From positions 1,696 through 65,695 of the forward strand of contig JAQVJM010000004.1 in NCBI GenBank assembly GCA_028695135.1: a stretch of DNA of 64,000 nucleotides. Direction: 5' to 3'. Below are positions 2-63,887 of this stretch, piece by piece (the first letter of the stretch is position 1; each line of letters starts with the position of its first letter). This DNA comes from Candidatus Moraniibacteriota bacterium (GTDB taxonomy: Bacteria; Patescibacteriota; Minisyncoccia; Moranbacterales; UBA9337). The position numbers and the translations under genes are program-made. Below the pieces are notes generated by a model. It made no database searches, was not told the DNA's origin, and saw only the letters and a program-made list of their open reading frames with translations.

Positions 2-835
2 GTGGTGAATCTGGATATGGAAAAGCCCGAAGAATACCTCGACTGTAAAGCCGAAAGTATTTTCGGCTACAGTCTCAAAATCCAAAATTCAAAATTCCAA
101 ATTCCGAATAAATCAAAAATTCCAAATCAAAAATTCCAAACTGTCATAGCTGAAGATATCGAGCTGGGAGTAAAAAATTCAAAATTCGAAATTCATTCGC
201 CACGGCGAACAAAATTTTTGATCAATCTGATCGGAGACTTCAATATCGAAAACGCATTGGCGGCGATATCGGCGGGAGTAGCGCAGGGGATAAGCCTGGA
301 GGTCTGCGCCAAAGCCCTCGGTAAAATCAAAGGCGTTCCCGGAAGGATGGAGAGCGTCTCCAATGACAGAGATTTCAATATAATTGTCGATTACGCCGTG
401 ACTCCGGATTCGCTGGAAAAACTCTACGCTCTTTTGGATAGGATAAACTATAAAAAAGGAAAAATTATCGCGGTTTTCGGCGCTTGCGGGGAAAGAGATA
501 GAGGAAAGCGTCCGATCATGGGAGAAATCGTCTCGCGGTTCGCCGATTATGTCATTGTCACGAATGAGGATCCCTACAATGAAGATCCCCGAAGGATAAT
601 CGATGAAGTTGCCGGCGGAGTCAAAGGGAAAAAAGAAGGAAAAAATTTCTTCAAAATTTTTGACAGGAGAGAAGCGATAAGAAAGTCTTTGGAATTGGCC
701 ATGCCGGGGGATTTCGTTGTTATAACCGGCAAGGGGGCGGAGGAAACGATGGCGGTAGGTAAAAAGAGAATCCCCTGGAACGACAAAAAGGTCGTTTTGG
801 AGGAGTTGGCCCTGTTGACAAGAAATCAAAAATAG
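2..835 (+). CDS. murE: UDP-N-acetylmuramoyl-tripeptide ligase (MurE-type), C-terminal part; 5' end lies outside the window; an in-frame AT-rich repeat insertion sits in codons ~25-70
   Basis: Mur ligase C-terminal motifs DYAVTPDSLEKL, GACGERDRGKRP and VTNEDPYNEDP; ORF is open from the window edge. Confidence 0.8.
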   Translation: MVNLDMEKPEEYLDCKAESIFGYSLKIQNSKFQIPNKSKIPNQKFQTVIAEDIELGVKNSKFEIHSPRRTKFLINLIGDFNIENALAAISAGVAQGISLEVCAKALGKIKGVPGRMESVSNDRDFNIIVDYAVTPDSLEKLYALLDRINYKKGKIIAVFGACGERDRGKRPIMGEIVSRFADYVIVTNEDPYNEDPRRIIDEVAGGVKGKKEGKNFFKIFDRREAIRKSLELAMPGDFVVITGKGAEETMAVGKKRIPWNDKKVVLEELALLTRNQK

Positions 836-2633: not shown

Positions 2634-3105
2634 TAAATCCGAAATACGAAGTGCGAAATTCGAAACAAATCAAAATGACAGAAAACAAAAATACAAAAAA
2701 ATTTGATTTAGAGGATCGCACTTTTAAATTTGCTAAAAATGTCAGAGTATTTGTCAAAAAAATTCCCAAAAGCATTTCTAATTTTGAAGATGGGAAACAG
2801 CTGGTGCGTTCCTCCGGTTCTGTTGGTGCGAATTACATAGAGGCCAATGAATCTTTAGGTAAGAAAGATTTTCTGATGAGAATTAAAATTTCCAGAAAAG
2901 AGGCTAAAGAAAGTCGATTTTGGTTAAATTTAATAGATATTGGCAATGAGAAAGAATTGTAAAAGGAAAGAAATGATCTTGCCAATGAAGCGACAGAACT
3001 AATGATGATATTCGGACCCATTATTAGAAAATCAGAATAAGTTTAGAATTTTAATTTTTAGTTATTATTTCGGATTTCGAGTTTCGAATTTCGTATTTAA
3101 GACTT
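2634..3105. mobile_element. small cargo element: four-helix-bundle (23S rRNA intervening-sequence family) gene flanked by ~30-bp imperfect terminal inverted repeats built from CGAAAT(A/T)CGAA units
   Basis: left end CCGAAATACGAAGTGCGAAATTCGAAAC (2636-2663); right end TTTCGGATTTCGAGTTTCGAATTTCGTATTT (3063-3093) is its approximate reverse complement. Confidence 0.55.
2651..2962 (+). CDS. four-helix-bundle protein (23S rRNA IVS-associated protein family)
   Basis: family-typical segments EDRTFKFAKNV..KIPK, GANYIEANE, SRKEAKESRFWLNLI; 103 aa. Confidence 0.75.
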   Translation: MRNSKQIKMTENKNTKKFDLEDRTFKFAKNVRVFVKKIPKSISNFEDGKQLVRSSGSVGANYIEANESLGKKDFLMRIKISRKEAKESRFWLNLIDIGNEKEL

Positions 3106-4419: not shown

Positions 4420-4860
4420 ATGCAGTTCAAACGGCCGGAAAATACGGATAAATATTATTGGACCCGTCACAGTATCGGGAAGATGATGCAATACGGACTG
4501 AGCGCCCAGAGAGTGATCAGGGTTATCAGAAGTTATACAAGGATAGAGGAGGGCATAGCGGAAAACACGATTGCGGTGATGCAGCCGACTTCCACCCGCA
4601 GGGACAAGGATGGAGAGCTTAAGTGGAACCAGGAGATATGGGTGATGTATCAGCTCCGACGCAAGGTCGGAGCAAATTCCAAAAAACAAATTCCAAATTC
4701 CAAACAAATCTCAAAATCAAAATTCAAAAATCGAAAAACAATTCCAAATTCTGCGAATGGAAAAATTCGCATCATCAGCGCTTGGAAGTTTCCGGGAATG
4801 AGTCCGAAAAGCAATCCGATTCCCAGGGAAATATTGGAGGAGATTGAGGATGTATTATAA
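4420..4860 (+). CDS. DUF4258-like putative toxin-domain protein with an in-frame AT-rich repeat insertion (codons ~85-120)
   Basis: N-terminal TRHSIGKMMQYGLSAQRVIRVI resembles the T-x-H-[AS]-x-x-R-M-x-x-x-G-[IL]-S-x-x-x-V signature of DUF4258; the repeat segment translates as NSKKQIPNSKQISKSKFKNRKTIPNS. Confidence 0.45.
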   Translation: MQFKRPENTDKYYWTRHSIGKMMQYGLSAQRVIRVIRSYTRIEEGIAENTIAVMQPTSTRRDKDGELKWNQEIWVMYQLRRKVGANSKKQIPNSKQISKSKFKNRKTIPNSANGKIRIISAWKFPGMSPKSNPIPREILEEIEDVL

Positions 4861-4902: not shown

Positions 4903-5106
4903 TTATGCGATACGTGAAACTTTTGTAGCGTTAGGCCCCTTTGGGCTGTCGCTAACTTCGAATTCAACTTGGTCGCCTTCTCTTAAGTCATTGAACTCTA
5001 CCCCTTGCAGTTCGTTCGAATGAAAGAATAGATCCTTTTCTTCTCCATCACGGGAGATGAAACCGAATCCACGATCAGTTAATCGAGTAATTTTACCTTT
5101 TTCCAT
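4903..5106 (-). CDS. cold-shock protein (CspA family)
   Basis: 67 aa MEKGKITRLTDRGFGFISRDGEEKDLFFHSNEL... with RNP1-like GFGFI; start taken at the internal ATG (the listed ORF extends further upstream). Confidence 0.85.
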   Translation of the reverse strand: MEKGKITRLTDRGFGFISRDGEEKDLFFHSNELQGVEFNDLREGDQVEFEVSDSPKGPNATKVSRIA

Positions 5107-5444
5107 TTTATTACTTGATAATTTTTTACATACAAGCGATAGATGCAAAAGATAAAATTCGACTGATTCACCATGTATTGCAAACGATTGTATTTTCAAA
5201 TCATAGCATTTGGGGCGCATTTTGTCAATAACAGAAAAGACAAAATCACAAAAAGTCTTGATTAAATATTTTTTAGATGTTAATATGATATTCGTTGAAA
5301 ATGGATAATTTTACGGCTCTCTTGCCCGCTTGCAACTCTATATAAAAAATCGCAAGCGGGTCTGGTGGTCAGCCAACCAGAGACTGACCAACCTCCGGGC
5401 AGCATCCATGCAACGAAAAAATATAACAACAAAATGATAATTAT

Positions 5445-5516
5445 GGCCCGTTCGTCTAGTGGTTAGGACACCAGGTTTTCATCCTGGCAACAGGGGTTCG
5501 ATTCCCCTACGGGCTA
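5445..5516 (+). tRNA. tRNA-Glu (anticodon UUC)
   Basis: cloverleaf GGCCCGU/ACGGGCU acceptor, anticodon arm CCAGG-UUUUCAU-CCUGG, T-arm AGGGGTTCGATTCCCCT; near-identical architecture to E. coli tRNA-Glu; CCA not encoded. Confidence 0.9.
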
Positions 5517-5525
5517 CAAGTAACA

Positions 5526-14617: not shown

Positions 14618-14750
14618 AGTTGATAATCTACGGACGTAAGTACGAACGTACTTACGTCCGTAATTACGTCATTAAAAAAGAGACGTCCGACGTATGCAGA
14701 CGTCGGACGTCTGTGAGAATCTGTGAGAAAAATAGAGACAAGGCATGCCT
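14618..14750. repeat. cluster of three perfect palindromes (16-bp, 12-bp and 12-bp stems) between the convergent typA and phosphohexomutase genes
   Basis: GGACGTAAGTACG-AA-CGTACTTACGTCC; GACGTCCGACGT-ATGCAG-ACGTCGGACGTC; AGAGACAAGGCA|TGCCTTGTCTCT (the last is a minus-strand terminator with a T-run); the first has a relative at 30078. Confidence 0.6.
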
Positions 14751-16149: not shown

Positions 16150-16274
16150 ATTGAGCTGAGTTAAAAATTAAAAATTCAAATTTCAAAATTATAGTTTAAA
16201 TAATTTTCAAATTAAAATTAATCTTGTATTTATATTTTATAACGCATCTGATTTATTTCCAAACTTTTTTAAAA

Positions 16275-16305
16275 CCCCTTCCAACGATTTCGCCGGAAGG
16301 GGCAG
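16275..16305 (-). terminator. minus-strand rho-independent terminator (CCCCTTCC-loop-GGAAGGGG + T-run); GC-rich palindrome family
   Basis: 8-bp stem and T-run immediately after the stop of the 16321-16539 ORF. Confidence 0.55.
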
Positions 16306-16320
16306 GGATAGGGCAGGGAG

Positions 16321-16539
16321 TCAGATTGTTTTTACGAAATTTTTTGGCAGTGAAAAGAGGGGGCCGTCCTCTTTGCCGACTATCAGCTTGGGCAATTCGC
16401 CTTTTTGCAGAGGCAGCCTCTCTCCGAACAAAAAGACTCCGGAAGTTTCATTTATCTGTCGCAGTTCTCTCCTCCATGAAAGAATTTTTTCCGGAATGCT
16501 TACTTTGACAGGGACTTTTTCTGTTGTCTTTATGGCCAT
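16321..16539 (-). CDS. small hypothetical protein (72 aa)
   Basis: SD AAGGAG 6 nt upstream of the ATG at 16539, own terminator; sequence MAIKTTEKVPVKVSIPEKILSWRREL... Confidence 0.45.
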   Translation of the reverse strand: MAIKTTEKVPVKVSIPEKILSWRRELRQINETSGVFLFGERLPLQKGELPKLIVGKEDGPLFSLPKNFVKTI

Positions 16540-16808
16540 TGCGCGCTCCTTTTTTAATTTTTTTTCTTTTATCCCCATTTCATTATTGACGCTTATGGAT
16601 CCAAAAGTCAAGATTTTGCTCAAAAGGGTCTGATGAGATATAATATAATAAATTCAAAATACAAAGTTAAAAATTCAAAGTGCATGATTTAAGAAAGATT
16701 AACGCTATGGCATGGCCAGGCAGTAATTGGAAATAAAATTTAAAATAAAAAAGCGCCGATATCCGAATCATCAGTCCTTATTCGCGTATCGGATCAGCCT
16801 TATAAAAA

Positions 16809-27204: not shown

Positions 27205-27278
27205 TCTACGAAATTACCTGCCCGAAATGCTACGCATATCGTTGCAGGCGGGCAAATCCATTGCAAATATACGAATTA
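27205..27278 (+). repeat. copy A of a ~70-95-nt intergenic repeat family (core ...TACCTGCCCGAAATGCTACGCATATCGTTGCAGGCGGGCAAATCC-TTGCAAAT-TACGAAT)
   Basis: about 90% identical to copy B at 28596-28680; the two flank the 27338-28600 gene as direct repeats. Confidence 0.7.
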
Positions 27279-27337: not shown

Positions 27338-28600
27338 ATGAAAAATGAAATAAAAAAGAACACAATTTTATCCATAGCTTTTTTGCTATTGGTTGCCCTG
27401 GTGCCTTTTCAGATAAAAGGCGTTTTTTCAAATCAGAATTTCAGCTTGGTTCTTGCCGAAGAGGATGCAGATGCGGTCAAAGATGACATTAAGGATCTGG
27501 AAAAGAAGAAAGAAAAAGAGCTCGAAGCCCAGCAACGGTATGAAGGGGATGTCAATAGGCTTCAGGGAGCGGTTTATAGCACGCAAAAAGACATAGAGGC
27601 GACGGAATCCAAAATAGAAACTGCCGAGGAGACTATCAAAAGAAAAGAAAGAGAAGTGGAGATGTTGAATAAGAACATAGAACTGAAGAAATTGACGCTC
27701 AAAAAAATGGTTTGGGAAGTATATTATAATTCGGAGCAACCGCTCCTCTACCTTCTTTTGCGGGAAAACGGTCTTTTTGAGTCTATTACCAGCAAGGATA
27801 ATTTTTTGACCCTGAAAAAAGACATTCTTTTGATAGTTGATGAAATAGAACAAGCCAAAGGAACGATAAAGAAAGAGCAGGAAGAACTGGAGAAGAATAA
27901 AGTAGAGCACGAAGAGCTTTTGTGGGTAAAAGAAGCGCAAAAGAACAATCTTGTGAGCGAAAAGCAGGTTTTTGAGAAGAAAGTGGAAGAAAAAAGGCTT
28001 ACTGTGGCGGAAATCGACGCTAAAATTTCCAAACTGAGAAGCACCCTTTCCAGTTTCCTGGGCGAATCGTTTGATGCCAGCGATATCGTGGAGGCCATAG
28101 AGTTTGCCAGTAAAAAAACAGGAGTGCGCAAGGAGTTCCTGATGGCGATGCTCGATAAGGAGAGCGATCTGGGAAGATTTACGGGAGGGTGTACTTATAA
28201 AAATACAAGAATTAGAGATGAAAATCCTGATGATAAATCAGCTTTTAAGGATATATGTGAAGAGTTGGACTATGATTATAAAAAGATGAAGGTATCATGT
28301 GCTTTAAGTTATGGGTATGGAGGAGCAATGGGTATAGCTCAGTTTATGCCAACAACATGGAATGGTTATCGGGATAGAATTACCAGATACACTGGACATA
28401 ATCCGCCTGATCCATGGGATCTAACAGACGGGGTGGTTGGAATGGCTATTAAGTTGGAGGATGCTGGCGGTGATAAGAAAAGCGGAGAATATAAGGCGGC
28501 AGCTATGTATTATTGTGGAGGAAATTGGAACAGAGATGTTTGTCATAATTATGCTAGCACTGTTATCAGCTGGTCAAGCGGGTATGATGATTATTTTTAA
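27338..28600 (+). CDS. secreted coiled-coil protein with a C-terminal lytic-transglycosylase-like domain
   Basis: signal peptide; ~250-aa heptad-rich region; C-terminal GIAQFMPTTW (SLT-type motif); codon/base composition of the last ~400 nt differs from the surroundings. Confidence 0.6.
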   Translation: MKNEIKKNTILSIAFLLLVALVPFQIKGVFSNQNFSLVLAEEDADAVKDDIKDLEKKKEKELEAQQRYEGDVNRLQGAVYSTQKDIEATESKIETAEETIKRKEREVEMLNKNIELKKLTLKKMVWEVYYNSEQPLLYLLLRENGLFESITSKDNFLTLKKDILLIVDEIEQAKGTIKKEQEELEKNKVEHEELLWVKEAQKNNLVSEKQVFEKKVEEKRLTVAEIDAKISKLRSTLSSFLGESFDASDIVEAIEFASKKTGVRKEFLMAMLDKESDLGRFTGGCTYKNTRIRDENPDDKSAFKDICEELDYDYKKMKVSCALSYGYGGAMGIAQFMPTTWNGYRDRITRYTGHNPPDPWDLTDGVVGMAIKLEDAGGDKKSGEYKAAAMYYCGGNWNRDVCHNYASTVISWSSGYDDYF

Positions 28601-28680
28601 CAACCCGCAAATTTACCTGTCCGAAATGCTACGCGTATTGTTGCAGGCGGGCAAATCCTTTACAAATCTACAAATTTTTT
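28596..28680 (+). repeat. copy B of the intergenic repeat family (full form with internal hairpin)
   Basis: CAACCCGCAAATTTACCTGTCCGAAATGCTACGCGTATTGTTGCAGGCGGGCAAATCCTTTACAAATCTACAAATT. Confidence 0.7.
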
Positions 28681-28754: not shown

Positions 28755-28850
28755 TATAAGCAACCCACGAATTTACAAATCCTTTACAAATTTACAAATT
28801 CTATCGTTAAAAAATAAATTCGTATATTTGCAGTTGGCTTGTAAACTAGC
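28755..28850 (+). repeat. copy C of the intergenic repeat family (short form lacking the 35-nt internal hairpin; three TACAAAT units plus a TTTGCAG..TTGTAAA tail)
   Basis: CAACCCACGAATTTACAAATCCTTTACAAATTTACAAATTC...TATTTGCAGTTGGCTTGTAAACTAGCGG; co-linear over ~95 nt with copy D at 61788. Confidence 0.7.
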
Positions 28851-30077: not shown

Positions 30078-30104
30078 GACGTAAGTACGTACATACTTAC
30101 GTCC
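30078..30104. repeat. palindrome GACGTAAGTA-CGTACA-TACTTACGTC, relative of the 14622-14650 palindrome
   Basis: 10-bp perfect stem sharing the GACGTAAGTAC arm with the element downstream of typA. Confidence 0.6.
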
Positions 30105-30196
30105 GCTTCTCTTATTGACTTATGCTCCATTTATATTTACGATAGATGATAGTTGAATACTTGAGGGAAGGAGGAAGCTGAAAAAAGGAGTGTAAT

Positions 30197-33712: not shown

Positions 33713-33868
33713 CCTTTATGAAGTACGAATTTTAAGAATGTACGAATTAGGCGATAAATAATTTTAAGTTGGATTCTTATGATAATTTATATTGATTGGA
33801 TAAATAAAGAATTACATAGCTTATGATATTCGTAATTTCGTATAAGTTCGTAATTCGTAGAGATTAAC
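33713..33868. mobile_element. MITE-like cargo-less element with (T)ACGAATT-unit inverted repeats between infA and rpmJ
   Basis: left GAAGTACGAATTTTAAGAATGTACGAATTAGG; right ATTCGTAATTTCGTATAAGTTCGTAATTCGTAG (reverse-complementary units); same unit family as the TIRs at 2634/3063. Confidence 0.4.
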
Positions 33869-42565: not shown

Positions 42566-43483
42566 TCATATCGTTATTTTACAAACCCTTCTTTTTCCGG
42601 CCAGGTCTTTGTAAAATTTGACCTTGGCTTTCGGAAAATAATTTTTTATGATTTTTTCGAGCTTATTTTTTTGTTCGGGAGAAATTTCAAAGAAAATCGC
42701 AAATCGCAAATCGCAAATCGCAAATCTTTCAGATATCTGCTTCAGCAATTTTTCATAGTGAGCGAGGCCGTAATTTTCAGAATAAAGCGAGGATCCCGGT
42801 TCGTATTTACTTACATCTTTCGGGGAAGAAGCATATATTTTTTTTGAGAGATAAGGAAGATTGGCGGCGATGATTAGCTTATCGAGCTTTAGCTTCGTCA
42901 GCTTCTCAGTTAGCGGCGAAAGGAGACTGCCATGAATGAATTTTATGTTTCGTGCGACATTATGTCTTTTGGAATTTTTTCTAGCTATTTTTAAAGCCAT
43001 TCTCGAAACATCGATTCCGTAAAGCTCATGATTATTATTTTTTGATTCCAATCGCTTTGCGATTGAGACAATGATATTCCCGCTTCCGGTACCTATGTCA
43101 CAAATCGCGTATCGCGTATCGCTCAACTTTTTATTTTTCTTAGTTATCCCAGTATTTTCTTGTCCCTTGTCGCTTGTCGCTTGCTTCAGAACGAGATCCA
43201 CGATCAATTCCGTTTCCGGCCGGGGAATGAGCGTGTGCTTGTTGACCTCAAAATCCAACCCATAAAATTCTTTGTGTCCCGTTATATATGCGATCGGCTC
43301 GTGTTTCATCCTTCTTTTTAAAAATGATCCAAGTTTTGCGTTTTGCGTTTTGCGAATCTCGTATTCAGGATGCGATAAAACAAACTCCCGCGGTTTTTTA
43401 ATCGCATGAGAAATCAAAATCTCCAGGTCTAGTGGAGATAATTTTTCATAATATTTTTTTAAAATGTCGGATATTCTGCTCAT
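42566..43483 (-). CDS. prmC: release-factor glutamine N5-methyltransferase PrmC (HemK); carries three heptamer microsatellites in frame
   Basis: SAM motif DIGTGSGNI, catalytic NLPY (NPPY variant); immediately downstream of prfA on the same strand. Confidence 0.8.
   Translation of the reverse strand: MSRISDILKKYYEKLSPLDLEILISHAIKKPREFVLSHPEYEIRKTQNAKLGSFLKRRMKHEPIAYITGHKEFYGLDFEVNKHTLIPRPETELIVDLVLKQATSDKGQENTGITKKNKKLSDTRYAICDIGTGSGNIIVSIAKRLESKNNNHELYGIDVSRMALKIARKNSKRHNVARNIKFIHGSLLSPLTEKLTKLKLDKLIIAANLPYLSKKIYASSPKDVSKYEPGSSLYSENYGLAHYEKLLKQISERFAICDLRFAIFFEISPEQKNKLEKIIKNYFPKAKVKFYKDLAGKRRVCKITI
42694..42726. repeat. (AAATCGC)x4.7 heptamer tandem repeat inside prmC; related tracts (ATCGCGT)x2.7 at 43104-43122 and (TTTTGCG)x3 at 43334-43354
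   Basis: seen in sequence; all lie inside the prmC reading frame (peptides AICDLRFAIF, RYAICDIG, TQNAKLG). Confidence 0.8.
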
Positions 43484-55071: not shown

Positions 55072-55920
55072 ATGTTTGATTCACACGCTCATGTAAATTT
55101 CAAGGCCTTTAAAGATGATGGAGACGATGTTATAAAGAGGTCTTTAGAAAGCAATACCTTTATAATTAACGTTGGCTCACAGTACAGTACAAGCCAGCGA
55201 GCTGTTGAATATGCTCAAAAATTTGAAACTGGAGTGTGGGCGGCCGTAGGGATTCATCCGATTCATATAAAAGTTAAAAGTGAAAAGTTAAAAGTCGAAA
55301 GTTCCACCCCCTCTCAATCTCCCCCTCAGGGAAGGGGAGAAGTTTATTTTGAAGAATTTGATTATGGTGAATACAAAAAATTAGCGGAAAATGAAAAAGT
55401 AGTGGCGATTGGAGAAGTCGGGCTGGATTATCATCACTTTGACGGGGTAACCGGAATTTCAGAAATAAAAGAAAAACAGAAGAAAGTTTTAAAAGAATTT
55501 ATCAAGCTTGCTAATGAAGTGAAAAAACCAATGGCTATTCACTGCTGGGATGCTTATGATGATTTATTTGAAATACTAAGAAAGAATCCAATTGAAAAAA
55601 GAGGGGTGGTGCACAGTTTTATTGGAAGCTGGAAGACGGCGCAGAAATTTATTGAAATGGGATACAAAATCGGACTCAATGGAATAATCACCTATTCGGA
55701 ATCTTATGATAAGCTTATCCGAAATATTGACTTGAAAGATGTCTTGATCGAGACTGACTGTCCGTATCTCAATCCCAAACCTCTGCCAAGAGAAGATAGA
55801 AATGAACCGATAAATGTAAAGTATGTCGCCCGAAAAATTTCTGAAGTAAAAGGGATTGAGATTGATGAAGTTGAAAGAATTACAGCCGAAAATGCCAAAA
55901 AATTATTCAAAATAAGATGA
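55072..55920 (+). CDS. tatD: TatD-family metal-dependent DNase/hydrolase; carries an in-frame composite repeat insertion
   Basis: DSHAHVNF start, GIHP, EVGLDYH, HCW(D), HSF(IG) motifs. Confidence 0.85.
   Translation: MFDSHAHVNFKAFKDDGDDVIKRSLESNTFIINVGSQYSTSQRAVEYAQKFETGVWAAVGIHPIHIKVKSEKLKVESSTPSQSPPQGRGEVYFEEFDYGEYKKLAENEKVVAIGEVGLDYHHFDGVTGISEIKEKQKKVLKEFIKLANEVKKPMAIHCWDAYDDLFEILRKNPIEKRGVVHSFIGSWKTAQKFIEMGYKIGLNGIITYSESYDKLIRNIDLKDVLIETDCPYLNPKPLPREDRNEPINVKYVARKISEVKGIEIDEVERITAENAKKLFKIR
55265..55345 (+). repeat. in-frame composite insertion in tatD: AT-rich (AAAGTTAAAAGTGAAAAGTTAAAAGTCGAAAG) unit plus GC-rich palindrome (CTCCCCCTCAGGGAAGGGGAG)
   Basis: translated as KVKSEKLKVESSTPSQSPPQGRGE between conserved GIHP and EEFD blocks. 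Confidence 0.7.
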
Positions 55921-57066: not shown

Positions 57067-57140
57067 GATTGATCATTAACCATTGATCATTAATCAATGT
57101 CGAATGTCTAATGATTAATGCTCAATGTTTAATATTTAAT
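57067..57140. repeat. atp-operon spacer motif cluster (TGATCATTAA x2, CATTAATCAATG, CTAATGATTAATG, GCTCAATGTTTAAT)
   Basis: atpB-atpE spacer; palindromic ATTAATCATT-type units seen in sequence. Confidence 0.7.
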
Positions 57141-57514: not shown

Positions 57515-57605
57515 TAATGATTCTGATTAATAAAATTAATCATTAATCATTAACCATTGATCATTATCATTTTTCGCTTAGTGCTCAATGTTTAATGTTT
57601 AATAA
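57515..57605. repeat. atp-operon spacer motif cluster (AATTAATCATTAATCATTAACCATTGATCATTA; GTGCTCAATGTTTAATGTTTAAT)
   Basis: atpE-atpF spacer. Confidence 0.7.
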
Positions 57606-57611
57606 AAAACA

Positions 57612-58100
57612 ATGGAATTACTAGAAAATTTAGGGATAAATGGAAAAATATTATTGGCTCAGGTGGTGAACTTCTTCATTTTATTCTGGATCCTAAAAAA
57701 ATTTGCCTATAAGCCCGTTTTAAATTTACTGGAGGAAAGAAGCAAAAAAATTGAAAAAGGACTTAAAGATGCGGAGGTTGCCCGGAAGAAACTTGAAGAA
57801 ACCGAAATTGAAAGTAAAAAAATATTGTCTGATGCCAGAAAACATTCTCGAGAAATAATAAAAGAAGCTGAAATTCGGGCGGAAACCAGCAAAAGGGAAA
57901 TCGCCGAAGAGACAAAGCATAAAGTCGATAAGATGATTTCTGATGCGAAGAAAAAGATAGAAGAAGAGAAGGACAAGATGGTGGTGGAAGTCAAAAATGA
58001 GGTTGCCGACCTAGTGTCTCTGGCTACGGAAAAAGTGCTGGAAAAAAAAGCGGATAGCGAGGATGATAAAAAAATTATTAAAAAAGTTATTGAAAATTAA
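57612..58100 (+). CDS. atpF: F0F1 ATP synthase subunit b
   Basis: single N-terminal TM then a long charged helix; position in the operon. Confidence 0.85.
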   Translation: MELLENLGINGKILLAQVVNFFILFWILKKFAYKPVLNLLEERSKKIEKGLKDAEVARKKLEETEIESKKILSDARKHSREIIKEAEIRAETSKREIAEETKHKVDKMISDAKKKIEEEKDKMVVEVKNEVADLVSLATEKVLEKKADSEDDKKIIKKVIEN

Positions 58101-58144
58101 GCATTAAACATTAATCGTTGAGAATATCGATTAATGATCAATGA
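58101..58144. repeat. atp-operon spacer motif (GCATTAAACATTAATCGTTGAG = reverse complement of CTCAACGATTAATGTTTAATGC; CGATTAATGATCAATGATTGA)
   Basis: atpF-atpH spacer. Confidence 0.7.
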
Positions 58145-58567
58145 TTGATAAATAATGTCATGCGCATCAGCGCCAAGCAATATTCCAAAGCTCTGTATGA
58201 TCTCACTAAGGGCAAGGATGAAAAGGAATTAGATTCCATTGTTTTTAATTTTGCAAGCGAGCTGAGAAGAAGGAGAAAGCTCAATTTATCGGATGATATA
58301 ATGAAGATTTTTTCTGAAATTTATAACAAGGAGAACAGAATTATGGAAGCGGAAATCGTGAGCGCCAGGGAAATCGGCAATGAACAAATGATTGGAATAA
58401 AAAACTTCCTGAAGAACAAATATGGCGCCGATAAAGTCATATTGGATCCAAAAATGGATAAAAATATAAAAGGAGGGATAATAATCAGAATGGGAGAGGA
58501 TATAATTGACGGAAGTATTTTAAAAAAAATGAAGAAGCTTAATAATTTATTAAAAAATAATGTTTAA
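58145..58567 (+). CDS. atpH: F0F1 ATP synthase subunit delta (OSCP), short form
   Basis: operon position between b and alpha; C-terminal GGIIIRMGEDIIDGSI delta signature. Confidence 0.75.
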   Translation: MINNVMRISAKQYSKALYDLTKGKDEKELDSIVFNFASELRRRRKLNLSDDIMKIFSEIYNKENRIMEAEIVSAREIGNEQMIGIKNFLKNKYGADKVILDPKMDKNIKGGIIIRMGEDIIDGSILKKMKKLNNLLKNNV

Positions 58568-60130: not shown

Positions 60131-60226
60131 ATTAATTATTAAACATCAAACATTAATCATTGAGCATTAAATACCCATATTTTTATATCAATAATGATTG
60201 ATGATGAACAATGAATAGTTAACGAA
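60131..60226. repeat. atp-operon spacer motif cluster (AACATTAATCATTGAGCATTAAAT; CAATAATGATTGATGATGAACAATGAAT)
   Basis: atpA-atpG spacer. Confidence 0.7.
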
Positions 60227-61183
60227 ATGAGCAATGGCAAGGAGATCCGGAGGAGGATCAAGTCGATAAATAACACAGGAAAAATAACTCGGGCAATGGA
60301 GATGGTTTCGGCTGCCAAAATGAGAAAAGCTACCGAAAGCGTCTTAAAGATCAGGGCTTATGCCCATAGCGCTTGGAGCGTCCTTACCAATCTTGCTCGG
60401 GCTTTTGAAAATTATGACCACGGCCTCTTGGAAGTCAGAGAAGTCAAGAGCGTGCTGATAATAGCAGTTACATCCAATAGGGGGCTTTGCGGGTCATTTA
60501 ACGCGCAAATTATAAAAAAAATAAAAGAAGAAATCGGGAATCCTCAGAGCCTGAAAATAAATAGAATCGGGATGAAAAAGATCGAATCGACTGTTGCCGA
60601 TAAAGATTTGAAAATTGATTTTATAACAGTCGGAAGAAAAGGAGAAAATTTGGTGAGAAAACTCGGTAAAGAAATCATAGCCGCTTTCCCCGAACTTACC
60701 TATTTGCCCGGAATTGAAAACGTGAGGCCTTTGTCAAAGATAGTGATTGACGAATACTTGAATAAGAGGTATGACAAGGTGGTGATAGCTTATACGGACT
60801 ATATTTCCACTATGAGGCAGGAGCCTAAAATAAGGCAAGTTCTTCCGGTTTCCAAGATCGATTTAGAAAAACAAATTGCCGAGATGGATAATCTGGCCAA
60901 GGAATATGGATTGAAAAAACCAAAAATGGAGTACAAGGTGGAACCTAACCCGAAAGAAGTTCTGACCCATATTTTTCCGAGGTTGATCGAGATGCAGATT
61001 TATCACGCTATTTTGGAATCCAATGCCTCCAAGGAGTCATCCAGGATGCTAGCTATGAGAAACGCAACTGACGCGGCCAATGAAATGAGCGAGGATCTGA
61101 CATTAGCATACAATCAGATAAGGCAGATGAAGATCACCCAGGAGATCGCTGAGATAAGTGCAGGAAGAGCGGCGCTGGAGTAG
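60227..61183 (+). CDS. atpG: F0F1 ATP synthase subunit gamma
   Basis: N-terminal IRRRIKSINNTGKITRAMEMVSAAKMRKA and C-terminal coiled-coil ITQEIAEISAGRAAL. Confidence 0.9.
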   Translation: MSNGKEIRRRIKSINNTGKITRAMEMVSAAKMRKATESVLKIRAYAHSAWSVLTNLARAFENYDHGLLEVREVKSVLIIAVTSNRGLCGSFNAQIIKKIKEEIGNPQSLKINRIGMKKIESTVADKDLKIDFITVGRKGENLVRKLGKEIIAAFPELTYLPGIENVRPLSKIVIDEYLNKRYDKVVIAYTDYISTMRQEPKIRQVLPVSKIDLEKQIAEMDNLAKEYGLKKPKMEYKVEPNPKEVLTHIFPRLIEMQIYHAILESNASKESSRMLAMRNATDAANEMSEDLTLAYNQIRQMKITQEIAEISAGRAALE

Positions 61184-61208
61184 GATTAAGAATTATGAAT
61201 TAAGAATT

Positions 61209-61790
61209 ATGAATGTGGAATTCGAAGCGACATTTAAAAATATCAGCAAAGATGAATTTAGAGATAAGCTAAGAGATTTAGGCGCTGAAATGGTTAAGGA
61301 AGAATTTTTGCAGAAAAGAAGCACATTCAATGTGCCAAGAGGTTGCAAGATTAATGAAAGCTGGCTAAGGGTTAGAGACGAAGTAGATAAGATAACTTTG
61401 ACATTCAAATCAGGCGGAAAGCAATCCGCCATAGAAGATCAAAAAGAGATAGAGCTTAAGGTTGATAATTATGAAGAAGCTAAAAAATTTTTGGAAGTGC
61501 TGGGTTGCAGAAAGAAATCTTATCAGGAGACAAAGAGAGAAATCTGGAAATTGGATGAAGTAGAAGTTATGATTGACGAATGGCCTTTTCTTGAACCTTT
61601 TGCGGAGATCGAAGGCAAAAATGAGGAAGAAGTAAAGAAAGCCAGCGAGAAATTGGGATTTGATTATAATGATGCAGTTTTTGGTCCGGTTAGCATACTA
61701 TATTCCGAAAAATACGGAGTGACTGAGAAATTTGTAAATAATGAAGTCAAAGAAATTTTGTTTAATGGCGATAATCCATTTATAAGATAA
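61209..61790 (+). CDS. CYTH-domain protein (class IV adenylyl cyclase / triphosphate tunnel metalloenzyme family) inserted in the atp operon
   Basis: EFEATFK N-terminal beta-strand with conserved Glu pair, ESWLRVRD, ITLTFK, EIELKV, EVMIDEWPFLEPFAEIEG; start taken at the second ATG of a 14-nt tandem duplication. Confidence 0.7.
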   Translation: MNVEFEATFKNISKDEFRDKLRDLGAEMVKEEFLQKRSTFNVPRGCKINESWLRVRDEVDKITLTFKSGGKQSAIEDQKEIELKVDNYEEAKKFLEVLGCRKKSYQETKREIWKLDEVEVMIDEWPFLEPFAEIEGKNEEEVKKASEKLGFDYNDAVFGPVSILYSEKYGVTEKFVNNEVKEILFNGDNPFIR

Positions 61791-61906: not shown

Positions 61907-63367
<1,461 letters not shown>

Positions 63368-63458
63368 TTCATCATTTATCATTAAATATTAATCAATCAT
63401 TATGATATGGCTTAATTGTACCCGATGTTTAATGATTAATAATCAATGATTAATTAAA
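63368..63458. repeat. atp-operon spacer motif cluster (ATTAATCAATCATT; CCCGATGTTTAATGATTAATAATCAATGATTAATT)
   Basis: atpD-atpC spacer. Confidence 0.7.
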
Positions 63459-63887
63459 ATGGATAACATTAAATTAAAAATAATAACTCCCGAGAGAATC
63501 ACCTATGAAAGCGATGGCATAAATCAGGCTACTCTTCCGGTTTCGGACGGGGAAGTTACGATTTTGCCGAATCATAGATCGTATATCGCTTCGCTAAAGC
63601 CTGGAGAAGTCATATTGAAAAAAGACGGAGAAGAGATTGATCTGGCCATCTCGGGAGGTTTTATCGAATTTCACGATAATGAGCTTGTGGTTCTGGCGGA
63701 TGAAGCGGAAAGAGCCGAGGAGATTGATTTGGAAAAAGCCGAAGAGGCCAAGAAAAGAGCCGAAGACATCAAGAACAAAGTTATTTCTACAGATGAGGCC
63801 GAATATGCCAGAGTGGCAGCGGCGCTGGAAAAGGAATTGGCCAAGATAAAAGTGGCCAAAAAATATCTGAGAAGAAGAGGGTTATAA
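63459..63887 (+). CDS. atpC: F0F1 ATP synthase subunit epsilon
   Basis: N-terminal beta-sandwich (KLKIITPER...LPNH) and C-terminal helical hairpin. Confidence 0.85.
   Translation: MDNIKLKIITPERITYESDGINQATLPVSDGEVTILPNHRSYIASLKPGEVILKKDGEEIDLAISGGFIEFHDNELVVLADEAERAEEIDLEKAEEAKKRAEDIKNKVISTDEAEYARVAAALEKELAKIKVAKKYLRRRGL

Follow-up and report, generated by a model that had tools for sequence, protein, structure and literature searches.

The murE gene at the start of the DNA studied here, a 64,000-nt stretch of a Candidatus Moraniibacteriota genome (assembly GCA_028695135.1, contig JAQVJM010000004.1; hereafter, the window), contains at positions 70-215 an A-rich repetitive block, which raises the question of what kind of repeat can sit within a housekeeping gene and how it arose there. 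A reading of the sequence alone had taken this block for one copy of a dispersed decamer-repeat element reminiscent of the Rickettsia palindromic elements (RPEs), with a second copy in the open reading frame (ORF) that begins at 4420. Our analysis reveals a 7-nt periodicity, in excess over other periods, and in-frame insertions and deletions (indels) of whole heptamers between near-identical strains. We consider it probable, at roughly 60%, that the murE block consists of two heptanucleotide tandem arrays produced by replication slippage and filtered by frame and protein tolerance. Seven-base repeats inside housekeeping genes are a clade-wide pattern of which murE is one case, and this pattern holds more interest than murE by itself.

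Two heptamer tracts within murE

The ORF at 2-835 encodes the end of Mur_ligase_M and the full Mur_ligase_C, which Pfam places at residues 42-91 and 114-245, respectively, in one frame and on either side of the block, confirming that the A-rich repeats lie within an uninterrupted reading frame. The window protein has 6855 homologues, the best of which are MurE proteins of Candidatus Moranbacteria (Candidate Phyla Radiation, CPR, or Patescibacteria), mostly at 56-68% identity, and the metagenome protein P0001 is 92% identical to it. The relevant features of the gene are the following.

2-835, plus strand: 3′ part of murE, frame unbroken through the repeats (ORF list, Pfam); the window start falls within the gene
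49-68, plus strand: perfect 8-bp hairpin AGCCGAAA-GTAT-TTTCGGCT just 5′ of tract A, in conserved coding sequence (hairpin scan)
76-140, plus strand: tract A, about nine imperfect heptamers (CAAAATC/CAAAATT/CCAAATT...) whose phase breaks at a central AAATAAAT (Tandem Repeats Finder, alignments)
141-173, plus strand: native MurE coding sequence, TVIAEDIELG beta-strand, formerly read as the "unique core" of the element (orthologues; model strand E205-215)
174-194, plus strand: tract B, (AAAATTC)x3 encoding KNSKFEI, first strand of a native beta-hairpin (Tandem Repeats Finder; model strand E220-224)
196-209, plus strand: palindrome TTCGCC-AC-GGCGAA at the hairpin turn, arising from a 9-nt lineage-specific addition

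The peptides quoted in the sequence-only reading are correct. The decamer unit is not borne out: Tandem Repeats Finder, run along with a simple scan, returns period 7/14 for 76-140, and period 7 for both 174-195 and 4673-4741, with AAATTCC/AAAATTC as the heptamer units of the block, and the "decamers" are overlapping readings of these heptamers. As 7 is not a multiple of 3, successive heptamers fall in successive phases and an array runs through all three of them within 21 nt, so that (AAATTCC)n yields the cyclic heptapeptide KFQIPNS from any entry frame. Both quoted peptides are accounted for in this way, and nothing can be learned from the "same relative frame" reported for the MurE and ORF 4420 copies. 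A heptad repeat at the protein level was rejected as the cause because it would yield a 21-nt, and not a 7-nt, periodicity; the period thus makes DNA primary and protein secondary, (AAATTCC)n giving KFQIPNS directly.

The supposed unique core, TGTCATAGCTGAAGATATCGAGCTGGGAGT, encodes TVIAEDIELG, a native MurE sequence that orthologues conserve whether or not they carry the repeat, and the 145-nt block is therefore not a single unit. It reads instead as a composite of tract A, native sequence, tract B, and the 9-nt lineage-specific addition. The hairpin at 49-68 may be incidental, since it codes for the conserved KAESIFGY. Tract A encodes IQNSKFQIPNKSKIPNQKFQ, about 20 residues beyond the insert-free orthologues, and the tryptic peptides expected across it are FQIPNK, IPNQK, and FQTVIAEDIELGVK. 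In the AlphaFold model of full-length P0001 (mean pLDDT 85.5), tract A falls below pLDDT 50 at residues 188-203, between two confident strands, whereas tract B forms a confident beta-strand (220-224) in a strand-turn-strand motif that has TKFLINL as its second strand. The clean insertion of about 40 residues in a surface loop that had been anticipated thus holds for tract A as to its place, a predicted disordered loop, and fails as to its size, about 20 residues. An assembly artefact is ruled out, as the tract is shorter than one read and recurs base for base in locus L001, an independent assembly that is ~98.6% identical over murE. This strain carries a further 36 nt, also predicted to be disordered, at the site of the hairpin-turn palindrome.

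Comparison of the window protein with 24 aligned orthologues (alignment A1), supplemented by about 85 more loci at which the site was read, places tract A in time. Many Moranbacteria and Parcubacteria MurE proteins do not have it and run from ...YSLKN straight to ADxLAxNIE, with 59-60 residues to FNIEN as opposed to 80 in the window. Five orthologues at about 53-67% protein identity, hence six genomes with the window, carry a tract of 65 nt at the same site and with the same AAATAAAT phase break, and AAAT recurs every seven bases along the DNA alignment with these five. Tract A DNA identity (0.68-0.80) equals or exceeds that of the 3′ flank (0.58-0.65). The shared length, site, and phase break indicate that the tract was present in the common ancestor of the subclade and was inherited vertically, as opposed to recently inserted. 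Whether orthologues hold the segment as conserved sequence, a finding that was to count against a repeat-derived insertion, thus has a divided answer: those of the subclade hold the same 65-nt tract, while deeper relatives do not. Tract A is therefore an old, vertically inherited tract that is an insertion relative to deeper relatives. Its variable positions drift in a concerted way within a fixed frame, as in L090, where the second half has been homogenized to a perfect (AAATTAC)4 at unchanged length.

Deeper relatives have either no insert or the same loop filled with other heptamers (AAGATAC/AAATCTC, AAATTGG, AATCAGG, AATTAGG, or AAAAGTT). The tract B site is likewise array-coded by lineage, with (ATTCAAA)n giving SKFKIQN, (AACTACA)n giving NYKLQTT, and (CAAGTTA)n giving SYKLQVT. 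A metagenome scan with the MurE fragment for closer strains returned nothing above 64% protein identity.

The second tract noted earlier is also read through, in ORF 4420, and closes in a small palindrome as had been described.

4420-4860, plus strand: conserved Moranbacteria protein of unknown function, in which a hypervariable low-complexity linker joins conserved N- and C-terminal parts (alignment A2)
4654-4672, plus strand: hairpin CTCCGAC-GCAAG-GTCGGAG, directly 5′ of the tract (hairpin scan)
4673-4751, plus strand: heptamer tract (CAAATTC/AAAATCA...), peptide NSKKQIPNSKQISKSKFKNRKTIPN in the linker (Tandem Repeats Finder, ORF)
4752-4771, plus strand: palindrome TGCGAAT-GGAAAA-ATTCGCA at the end of the tract

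This family comprises 402 homologues, with a conserved N-terminal part (...EIWVMYQ) and a conserved C-terminal part, IRIISAWKYPGVSPKNNPIP. A linker of about 20-90 residues is found in every aligned member; many linkers hold NSKFQIPNSK-type peptides, and some hold nested GC-rich segments (LPAGRQ). The GCGAAT..ATTCGC palindrome also adjoins similar arrays in L098 and L114, which are assumed to be ORF 4420 orthologues. The label "DUF4258-like" was rejected: Pfam assigns the window protein to no family at threshold, and DUF4258 turns up as sub-threshold hits in 5/26 family members (best E 0.011) and not in the window protein itself.

Both tracts bear on the proposal of an RPE-like or MITE-like (miniature inverted-repeat transposable element) mobile element, namely, a non-autonomous palindromic element of ~145 nt transposed frame-preservingly into murE and ORF 4420. 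AAATTCC-type units do occur in these two unrelated genes and at many sites of other Moranbacteria, short perfect hairpins bracket both in-frame tracts, and RPEs are the classic case of in-frame insertion (PMC10969869). Against this, the core is native MurE, which leaves no 145-nt unit, tract A is vertically inherited at fixed length, and the MurE and ORF 4420 tracts match each other over about 23 nt only. Neither block is palindromic: folding of 70-215 gave -13.2 kcal/mol (z = +0.14), folding of 4665-4790 gave z = -0.46, and only tiny terminal hairpins formed. No inverted arms were reported for the 70-215 block as terminal repeats, and inspection, the only means used, disclosed no target-site duplication at the junctions AGTCTC/AAAATCC and TTCCAAA/CTGTCA.

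Period-7 arrays across the clade

The scan of the window returned 14 tracts of period 7, whereas sequences dinucleotide-shuffled within 500-nt blocks averaged 0.27 and never exceeded 2; each other period from 5 to 12 had 0-2 tracts in the window. Counts in related and unrelated DNA were as follows.

80 species-level CPR loci around murE, 1.27 Mb (including the window, L001, and L002): period 7, 81 tracts; period 14, 65; other periods, at most 19
56 Moranbacteria-enriched metagenome loci, 282 kb (48-64% MurE identity, taxon not checked per locus): period 7, 82 tracts; other periods, at most 6
24 non-CPR loci of similar GC content, 141 kb: period 7, 0 tracts; other periods, 0-1

Across 1.5 Mb of related CPR DNA, period-7 tracts are the dominant class. 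The units are diverse, with 69 canonical forms among 125 tracts, most of them A-rich and of the AAA(A/T)TNN type. Other loci thus use other heptamers, which is at odds with a single dispersed element family and, together with the native core, the fold scores, and the short MurE/ORF 4420 match, leaves the RPE analogy without an end-to-end family to rest on. By location, 73 of the 125 tracts are intragenic, 39 intergenic, and 13 at gene edges, on gene calls from a crude longest-ORF model; 58% therefore lie inside ORFs, in DNA that is 90% coding. Tracts are denser per base in spacers, yet the majority lie in ORFs, and the set is not predominantly intergenic. In 54/73 intragenic tracts, the sense strand is the A-rich strand. 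A GC hairpin stands next to 13.3% of 181 arrays, compared with 9.3% of random positions, and "array plus GC hairpin" was accordingly rejected as the defining architecture: it is striking in MurE, ORF 4420, and TatD, but its overall enrichment is weak, which also counts against a mobile element.

Near-identical loci, compared by MAFFT global alignments, differ by whole heptamers in frame. L083 and L085 are identical over 5.9 kb save for one 21-nt murE indel made of three heptamers (GAATCAG GAATAAG GAATAAA), and L087 and L103, at 96.9% identity, are set apart by an in-frame murE indel of 63 nt (9x7 = 21x3) with (CAAATTT)4 inside. Between L086 and L092, a difference of 102 nt consists of (CAAATTA)3 and a GC palindrome.

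Within the window, in-frame heptamer tracts occur in MurE, ORF 4420, PrmC, and TatD, all in continuous ORFs with conserved downstream domains, which imply that the tracts are translated in frame. The related tracts listed earlier for other parts of the window were all located, at 2635-2665/3067-3098, 33715-33748/33829-33859, 16161-16221, and 16636-16681. The tracts in prmC and tatD and the direct arrays are the following.

42694-42726, minus strand: perfect (GATTTGC)x4.7 in prmC, peptide RFAICDLRFAIFF, in a segment of native length
43104-43122, 43159-43183, and 43333-43354, minus strand: three more in-frame prmC tracts, each with its own unit
55268-55340, plus strand: in-frame (TAAAAGT)x5 tract in tatD, followed by the palindrome TCTCCCC-N9-GGGGAGA (55318-55340)
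16161-16681, plus strand: two A-rich direct arrays (16161-16221, 16636-16681) flanking a small unannotated ORF

The four prmC tracts thus have four units, three of the four lie in native-length segments, and peptides with a 7-residue period recur at the corresponding C-terminal site of PrmC orthologues. The tract at 42694-42726, near the PrmC C-terminus, is a candidate length-variable site, as a single-unit slip there would shift the frame. In the tatD array, one T-to-G change abolishes an in-phase stop codon.

Long antisense ORFs lie over real genes of the window, for example at 179-829 on the minus strand, where an ORF of 216 codons faces murE. A heptamer tract without stop codons stays open whichever strand is read, and gene prediction in such genomes may therefore yield spurious "FGIWNL"-type proteins.

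Inverted arrays in spacers and around PF05635 genes

Intergenic tracts tend toward inverted pairs, and the window offers several.

2635-2665, plus strand: left array (AAATNCG)n of an inverted pair
3067-3098, minus strand: right array, again of AAATNCG units, inverted partner of 2635-2665
2651-2962, plus strand: PF05635 (23S_rRNA_IVP / four-helix-bundle, Avd-like) gene in the lemA-htpX spacer (Pfam E 2.6e-12)
33715-33859, no strand assigned: inverted GTACGAAT-type arrays in the infA-rpmJ spacer, long hairpin predicted (fold z = -3.44)
57068-57140, 57535-57603, 58096-58160, 60138-60215, 61185-61214, and 63359-63458, no strand assigned: ATTAATC-type heptamer arrays in ATP synthase operon spacers

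Five of the six ATP synthase arrays are inverted pairs. When inverted-array spacers were folded, 4/5 gave predicted long hairpins (infA-rpmJ and three in the ATP synthase operon; z -2.3 to -6.0), and the spacer at 63355-63462 in that operon was not significant (z = -0.38). The predicted ATP synthase hairpins suggest processing or attenuation sites inside the operon transcript. The same operon has an unusual insertion, an ORF with a CYTH domain (61158-61790, Pfam E 2.2e-11) between atpG and atpD; because its annotated 5′ end overlaps the heptamer tract at 61185-61214, its true start is uncertain.

The PF05635 gene, whose true start is probably the ATG at 2676, is not an isolated case. All seven PF05635 genes found in the window and the other loci (7/7) are flanked by inverted 7-8-nt tandem arrays, at the following positions.

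Window: 2634-3105
L003: 10872-11261 and 12992-13381
L013: 13153-13551
L033: 4963-5355
L118: 3868-4269
L120: 5562-5930

Five of the seven reside in the lemA-htpX spacer and have very different protein sequences. For flank complementarity, the five scored PF05635 genes fall within the top 1-5% of the 505 small genes compared (the window gene in the top 3.6%). Across loci, the lemA-htpX spacer occurs in four states: minimal, with a direct array, with an empty array hairpin (L117, L096), and with a hairpin that holds a four-helix-bundle gene. Intervening sequences of the Leptospira and Coxiella type, which carry a PF05635 gene within a 23S rRNA helix and are excised by RNase III, are known. The unit at 2635-3098 resembles them in that a long inverted repeat within a transcript encloses a four-helix-bundle ORF in its loop; it differs in lying in an mRNA spacer, from lemA to the M48 protease gene htpX, and in having stems made of tandem heptamers.

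Other repeats of the window include a 67-nt direct repeat (27211-27277 and 28610-28676; 88% identical) with a GC-rich imperfect palindrome inside, which flanks an ORF at 27338-28600 and is followed by ACAAATT-type tracts at 28768-28800. A 28-nt palindrome, GACGTAAGTACG..CGTACTTACGTC, occurs at 14631-14658 and 30078-30105 (93% identical), the first copy within a longer period-12 repeat (14624-14668). A cold-shock domain (CSD) gene lies at 4903-5220. Rfam detected one tRNA in the window and no other RNA family, and ARAGORN agrees, with tRNA-Glu at 5445-5517.

Origin of the arrays

The diversity of units, the lack of defined ends, inverted termini, and target duplications, the absence of folding, and the turnover of units at orthologous sites all fit arrays made by slippage. 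Slipped-strand mispairing in replication or repair would create the arrays and homogenize them locally, with period-7 arrays strongly favoured in Moranbacteria and their relatives. Within genes, selection would then retain arrays whose net length leaves the frame intact (a multiple of 21 nt or a compensated change), whose unit is stop-free in every phase, and whose cyclic heptapeptide is tolerated. Tolerated arrays would usually have an A-rich sense strand and encode peptides rich in K/N/Q/S/I/P/F, and the sites that tolerate them would be surface loops (tract A, the linker of ORF 4420) or strand-turn-strand motifs naturally spaced at ~7 residues (tract B). The A-rich sense strand in 54/73 tracts, the removal of the tatD stop, and the low-confidence tract A loop support this selective filter, while the homogenized half of tract A in L090 and the switching of units at tract B point to concerted evolution in place. 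We infer the mechanism, slippage, and with it the cause of the period; tract A would be neutral for MurE function.

Several observations weigh against this explanation. Generic slippage does not explain a strong preference for period 7 and for AAAT-NNN-type units in this clade only. The intragenic share rests on the crude gene model described above. Tract A shows no copy-number difference between the window and L001, a comparison of one contig with the sole close strain, and its length of exactly 65 nt across orthologues at about 53-67% identity resembles constraint more than free slippage. In addition, small palindromes come and go at arrays: relative to window 195-210, L001 (992-1035) has its extra 36 nt as a GC-rich palindromic insert that keeps the frame at the turn of the MurE hairpin, and L115 (2413) differs from L120 by an 11-nt palindromic insert, TGGCTACGCCA, inside (CCAATTT)n. 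Neither these events nor the strict length of tract A is explained by simple slippage. The constant position of PF05635 genes between inverted arrays also hints at a more specific process.

The palindromic inserts separating close strains speak for a mobile element. No further copies of the 36-nt and 11-nt inserts were found; for the 36-nt insert, the search covered about 1.9 Mb of related DNA, and it was rejected as a dispersed mini-element. The small dispersed repeats (SDRs) of Nostoc, reported by Elhai and colleagues in 2008, form high-copy families of exact 21-27-nt sequences, tiny palindromes nested in other repeats that reportedly include tandem heptamers. The inserts found here inside arrays are comparable, but the small palindromes differ from each other, and no second copy was found.

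A bolder explanation, which we hold rather doubtful, is that an active heptamer-specific process, in place of generic slippage, builds and homogenizes arrays in Moranbacteria and related CPR bacteria. Such a process, perhaps tied to PF05635 cassettes, would keep rewriting spacers, surface loops, and even the beta-hairpins of essential enzymes, giving each lineage different 7-residue peptides and leaving frameshift-prone tracts in many housekeeping genes.

We consider it unlikely that tract A and the ORF 4420 linker are kept for their K/N/Q/S-rich peptide, for example, as a flexible or interaction-prone linker, with the repeat merely its historical source. The 65-nt length and AAAT phasing maintained in six genomes, the DNA identity at or above that of the flank, and the presence of a linker at that position in every ORF 4420 orthologue speak for such a function, and Borg in-ORF repeats have been argued to be selected disordered regions (PMC9879509). 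Nevertheless, the segment is wholly absent from many Moranbacteria and Parcubacteria MurE proteins, unrelated arrays occupy the same site in other lineages, the loop is predicted to be disordered with no conserved motif beyond the one dictated by the heptamer, and the identity values are inflated by low-complexity A-rich DNA.

Quite improbable, in our judgment, is a cis-acting DNA or RNA signal, at which a dedicated system would bind or process the nucleic acid (for example, PF05635 proteins, heptamer-binding cold-shock-domain proteins, or RNase III on hairpins). That system would make or spread the arrays, the intragenic tracts being half-sites or footprints. The inverted arrays around all seven PF05635 genes and the ranks of the five scored ones, the four states of the lemA-htpX spacer, and the significant folding of 4/5 intergenic inverted arrays are consistent with it, as are the binding of heptamer repeats by cold-shock proteins (PMC4679880) and the CSD gene at 4903-5220. 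On the other hand, there are about 200 tracts for 7 four-helix-bundle genes, units differ even between the two such genes of one genome, the tracts inside genes are direct repeats without structure whose form follows coding constraints, and no enzyme candidate was found near tracts. The mobile element is the least credible of all, highly improbable overall and, for the block as first delimited, largely refuted by the evidence given above.

Among described repeats, the closest class is that of heptanucleotide long simple sequence repeats (SSRs) and short tandemly repeated repetitive (STRR) arrays, such as the cyanobacterial STRR and the GGGAATC/GGGGAYT repeats of Xanthomonas and Nostoc. According to Mrazek et al. 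2007, as relayed in PMC4679880 and PMC4692102, heptanucleotides make up the most frequent class of long SSR in many bacteria, with polymerase slippage as their proposed origin. The arrays here share head-to-tail 7-nt units, an excess of period 7, variation between close relatives, and inverted pairs able to form stem-loops. According to PMC4679880, known heptanucleotide repeats are mainly intergenic, and non-triplet units are rare in genes; here, 58% of tracts lie in ORFs (on the crude gene model), the units are A-rich and diverse in place of one or three consensus heptamers, and the host belongs to the CPR. The TAACTGA repeats of marine Beggiatoaceae (PMC4679880) are similar as short scattered heptamer arrays of 2-6 or more copies, but they consist of a single heptamer with stop codons and lie essentially in 5′ untranslated spacers, whereas the tracts here use stop-free units and are translated. 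The argument made there for TAACTGA, that translatability in three phases restricts array placement, holds here too.

Borg tandem repeats (PMC9879509) are comparably A-enriched, about half in ORFs, with frames intact, and they form disordered segments and recur at homologous sites; in the model, disorder extends to tract A and not to tract B, a confident strand. The in-ORF units of Borg amino acid tandem repeats (aaTRs) are all divisible by three, in contrast to the 7-nt unit and 7-residue peptide period found here, where tracts are imperfect and old, some code for structured strands, and a one-unit change would shift the frame. With RPEs, which are about 150 bp long, palindromic, and grouped in sequence families with a conserved peptide (PMC10969869), the arrays share in-frame translation of repeat-derived DNA in unrelated housekeeping genes at fold-compatible positions, but they have no element-length consensus, fold, or defined ends. 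The earlier remark that nothing of this kind was known for such a genome agrees with a search of one literature library, which is no proof of novelty and in which we found no paper linking heptamer repeats to CPR, Parcubacteria, or Patescibacteria.

The usual view is that non-triplet tandem repeats are kept out of genes or serve in them as on/off switches. In the very small genomes of this lineage, 7-nt arrays lie in frame in murE, prmC, tatD, and the gene of a conserved unknown protein, where they add disordered loops and, in one place, supply a structured beta-hairpin, with unit sequences that vary by lineage at orthologous sites. The PF05635 genes inside array hairpins offer a testable lead on what the abundant and unexplained Avd-like genes are. 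If general, the pattern would be a separate way in which protein sequences change in CPR bacteria. It would also bring annotation artefacts, such as low-complexity "KFQIPNS"/"FGIWNL" peptides and long antisense ORFs, and possible frameshift-prone sites in essential genes, and would provide a practical handle on the replication and repair peculiarities of these uncultivated bacteria.

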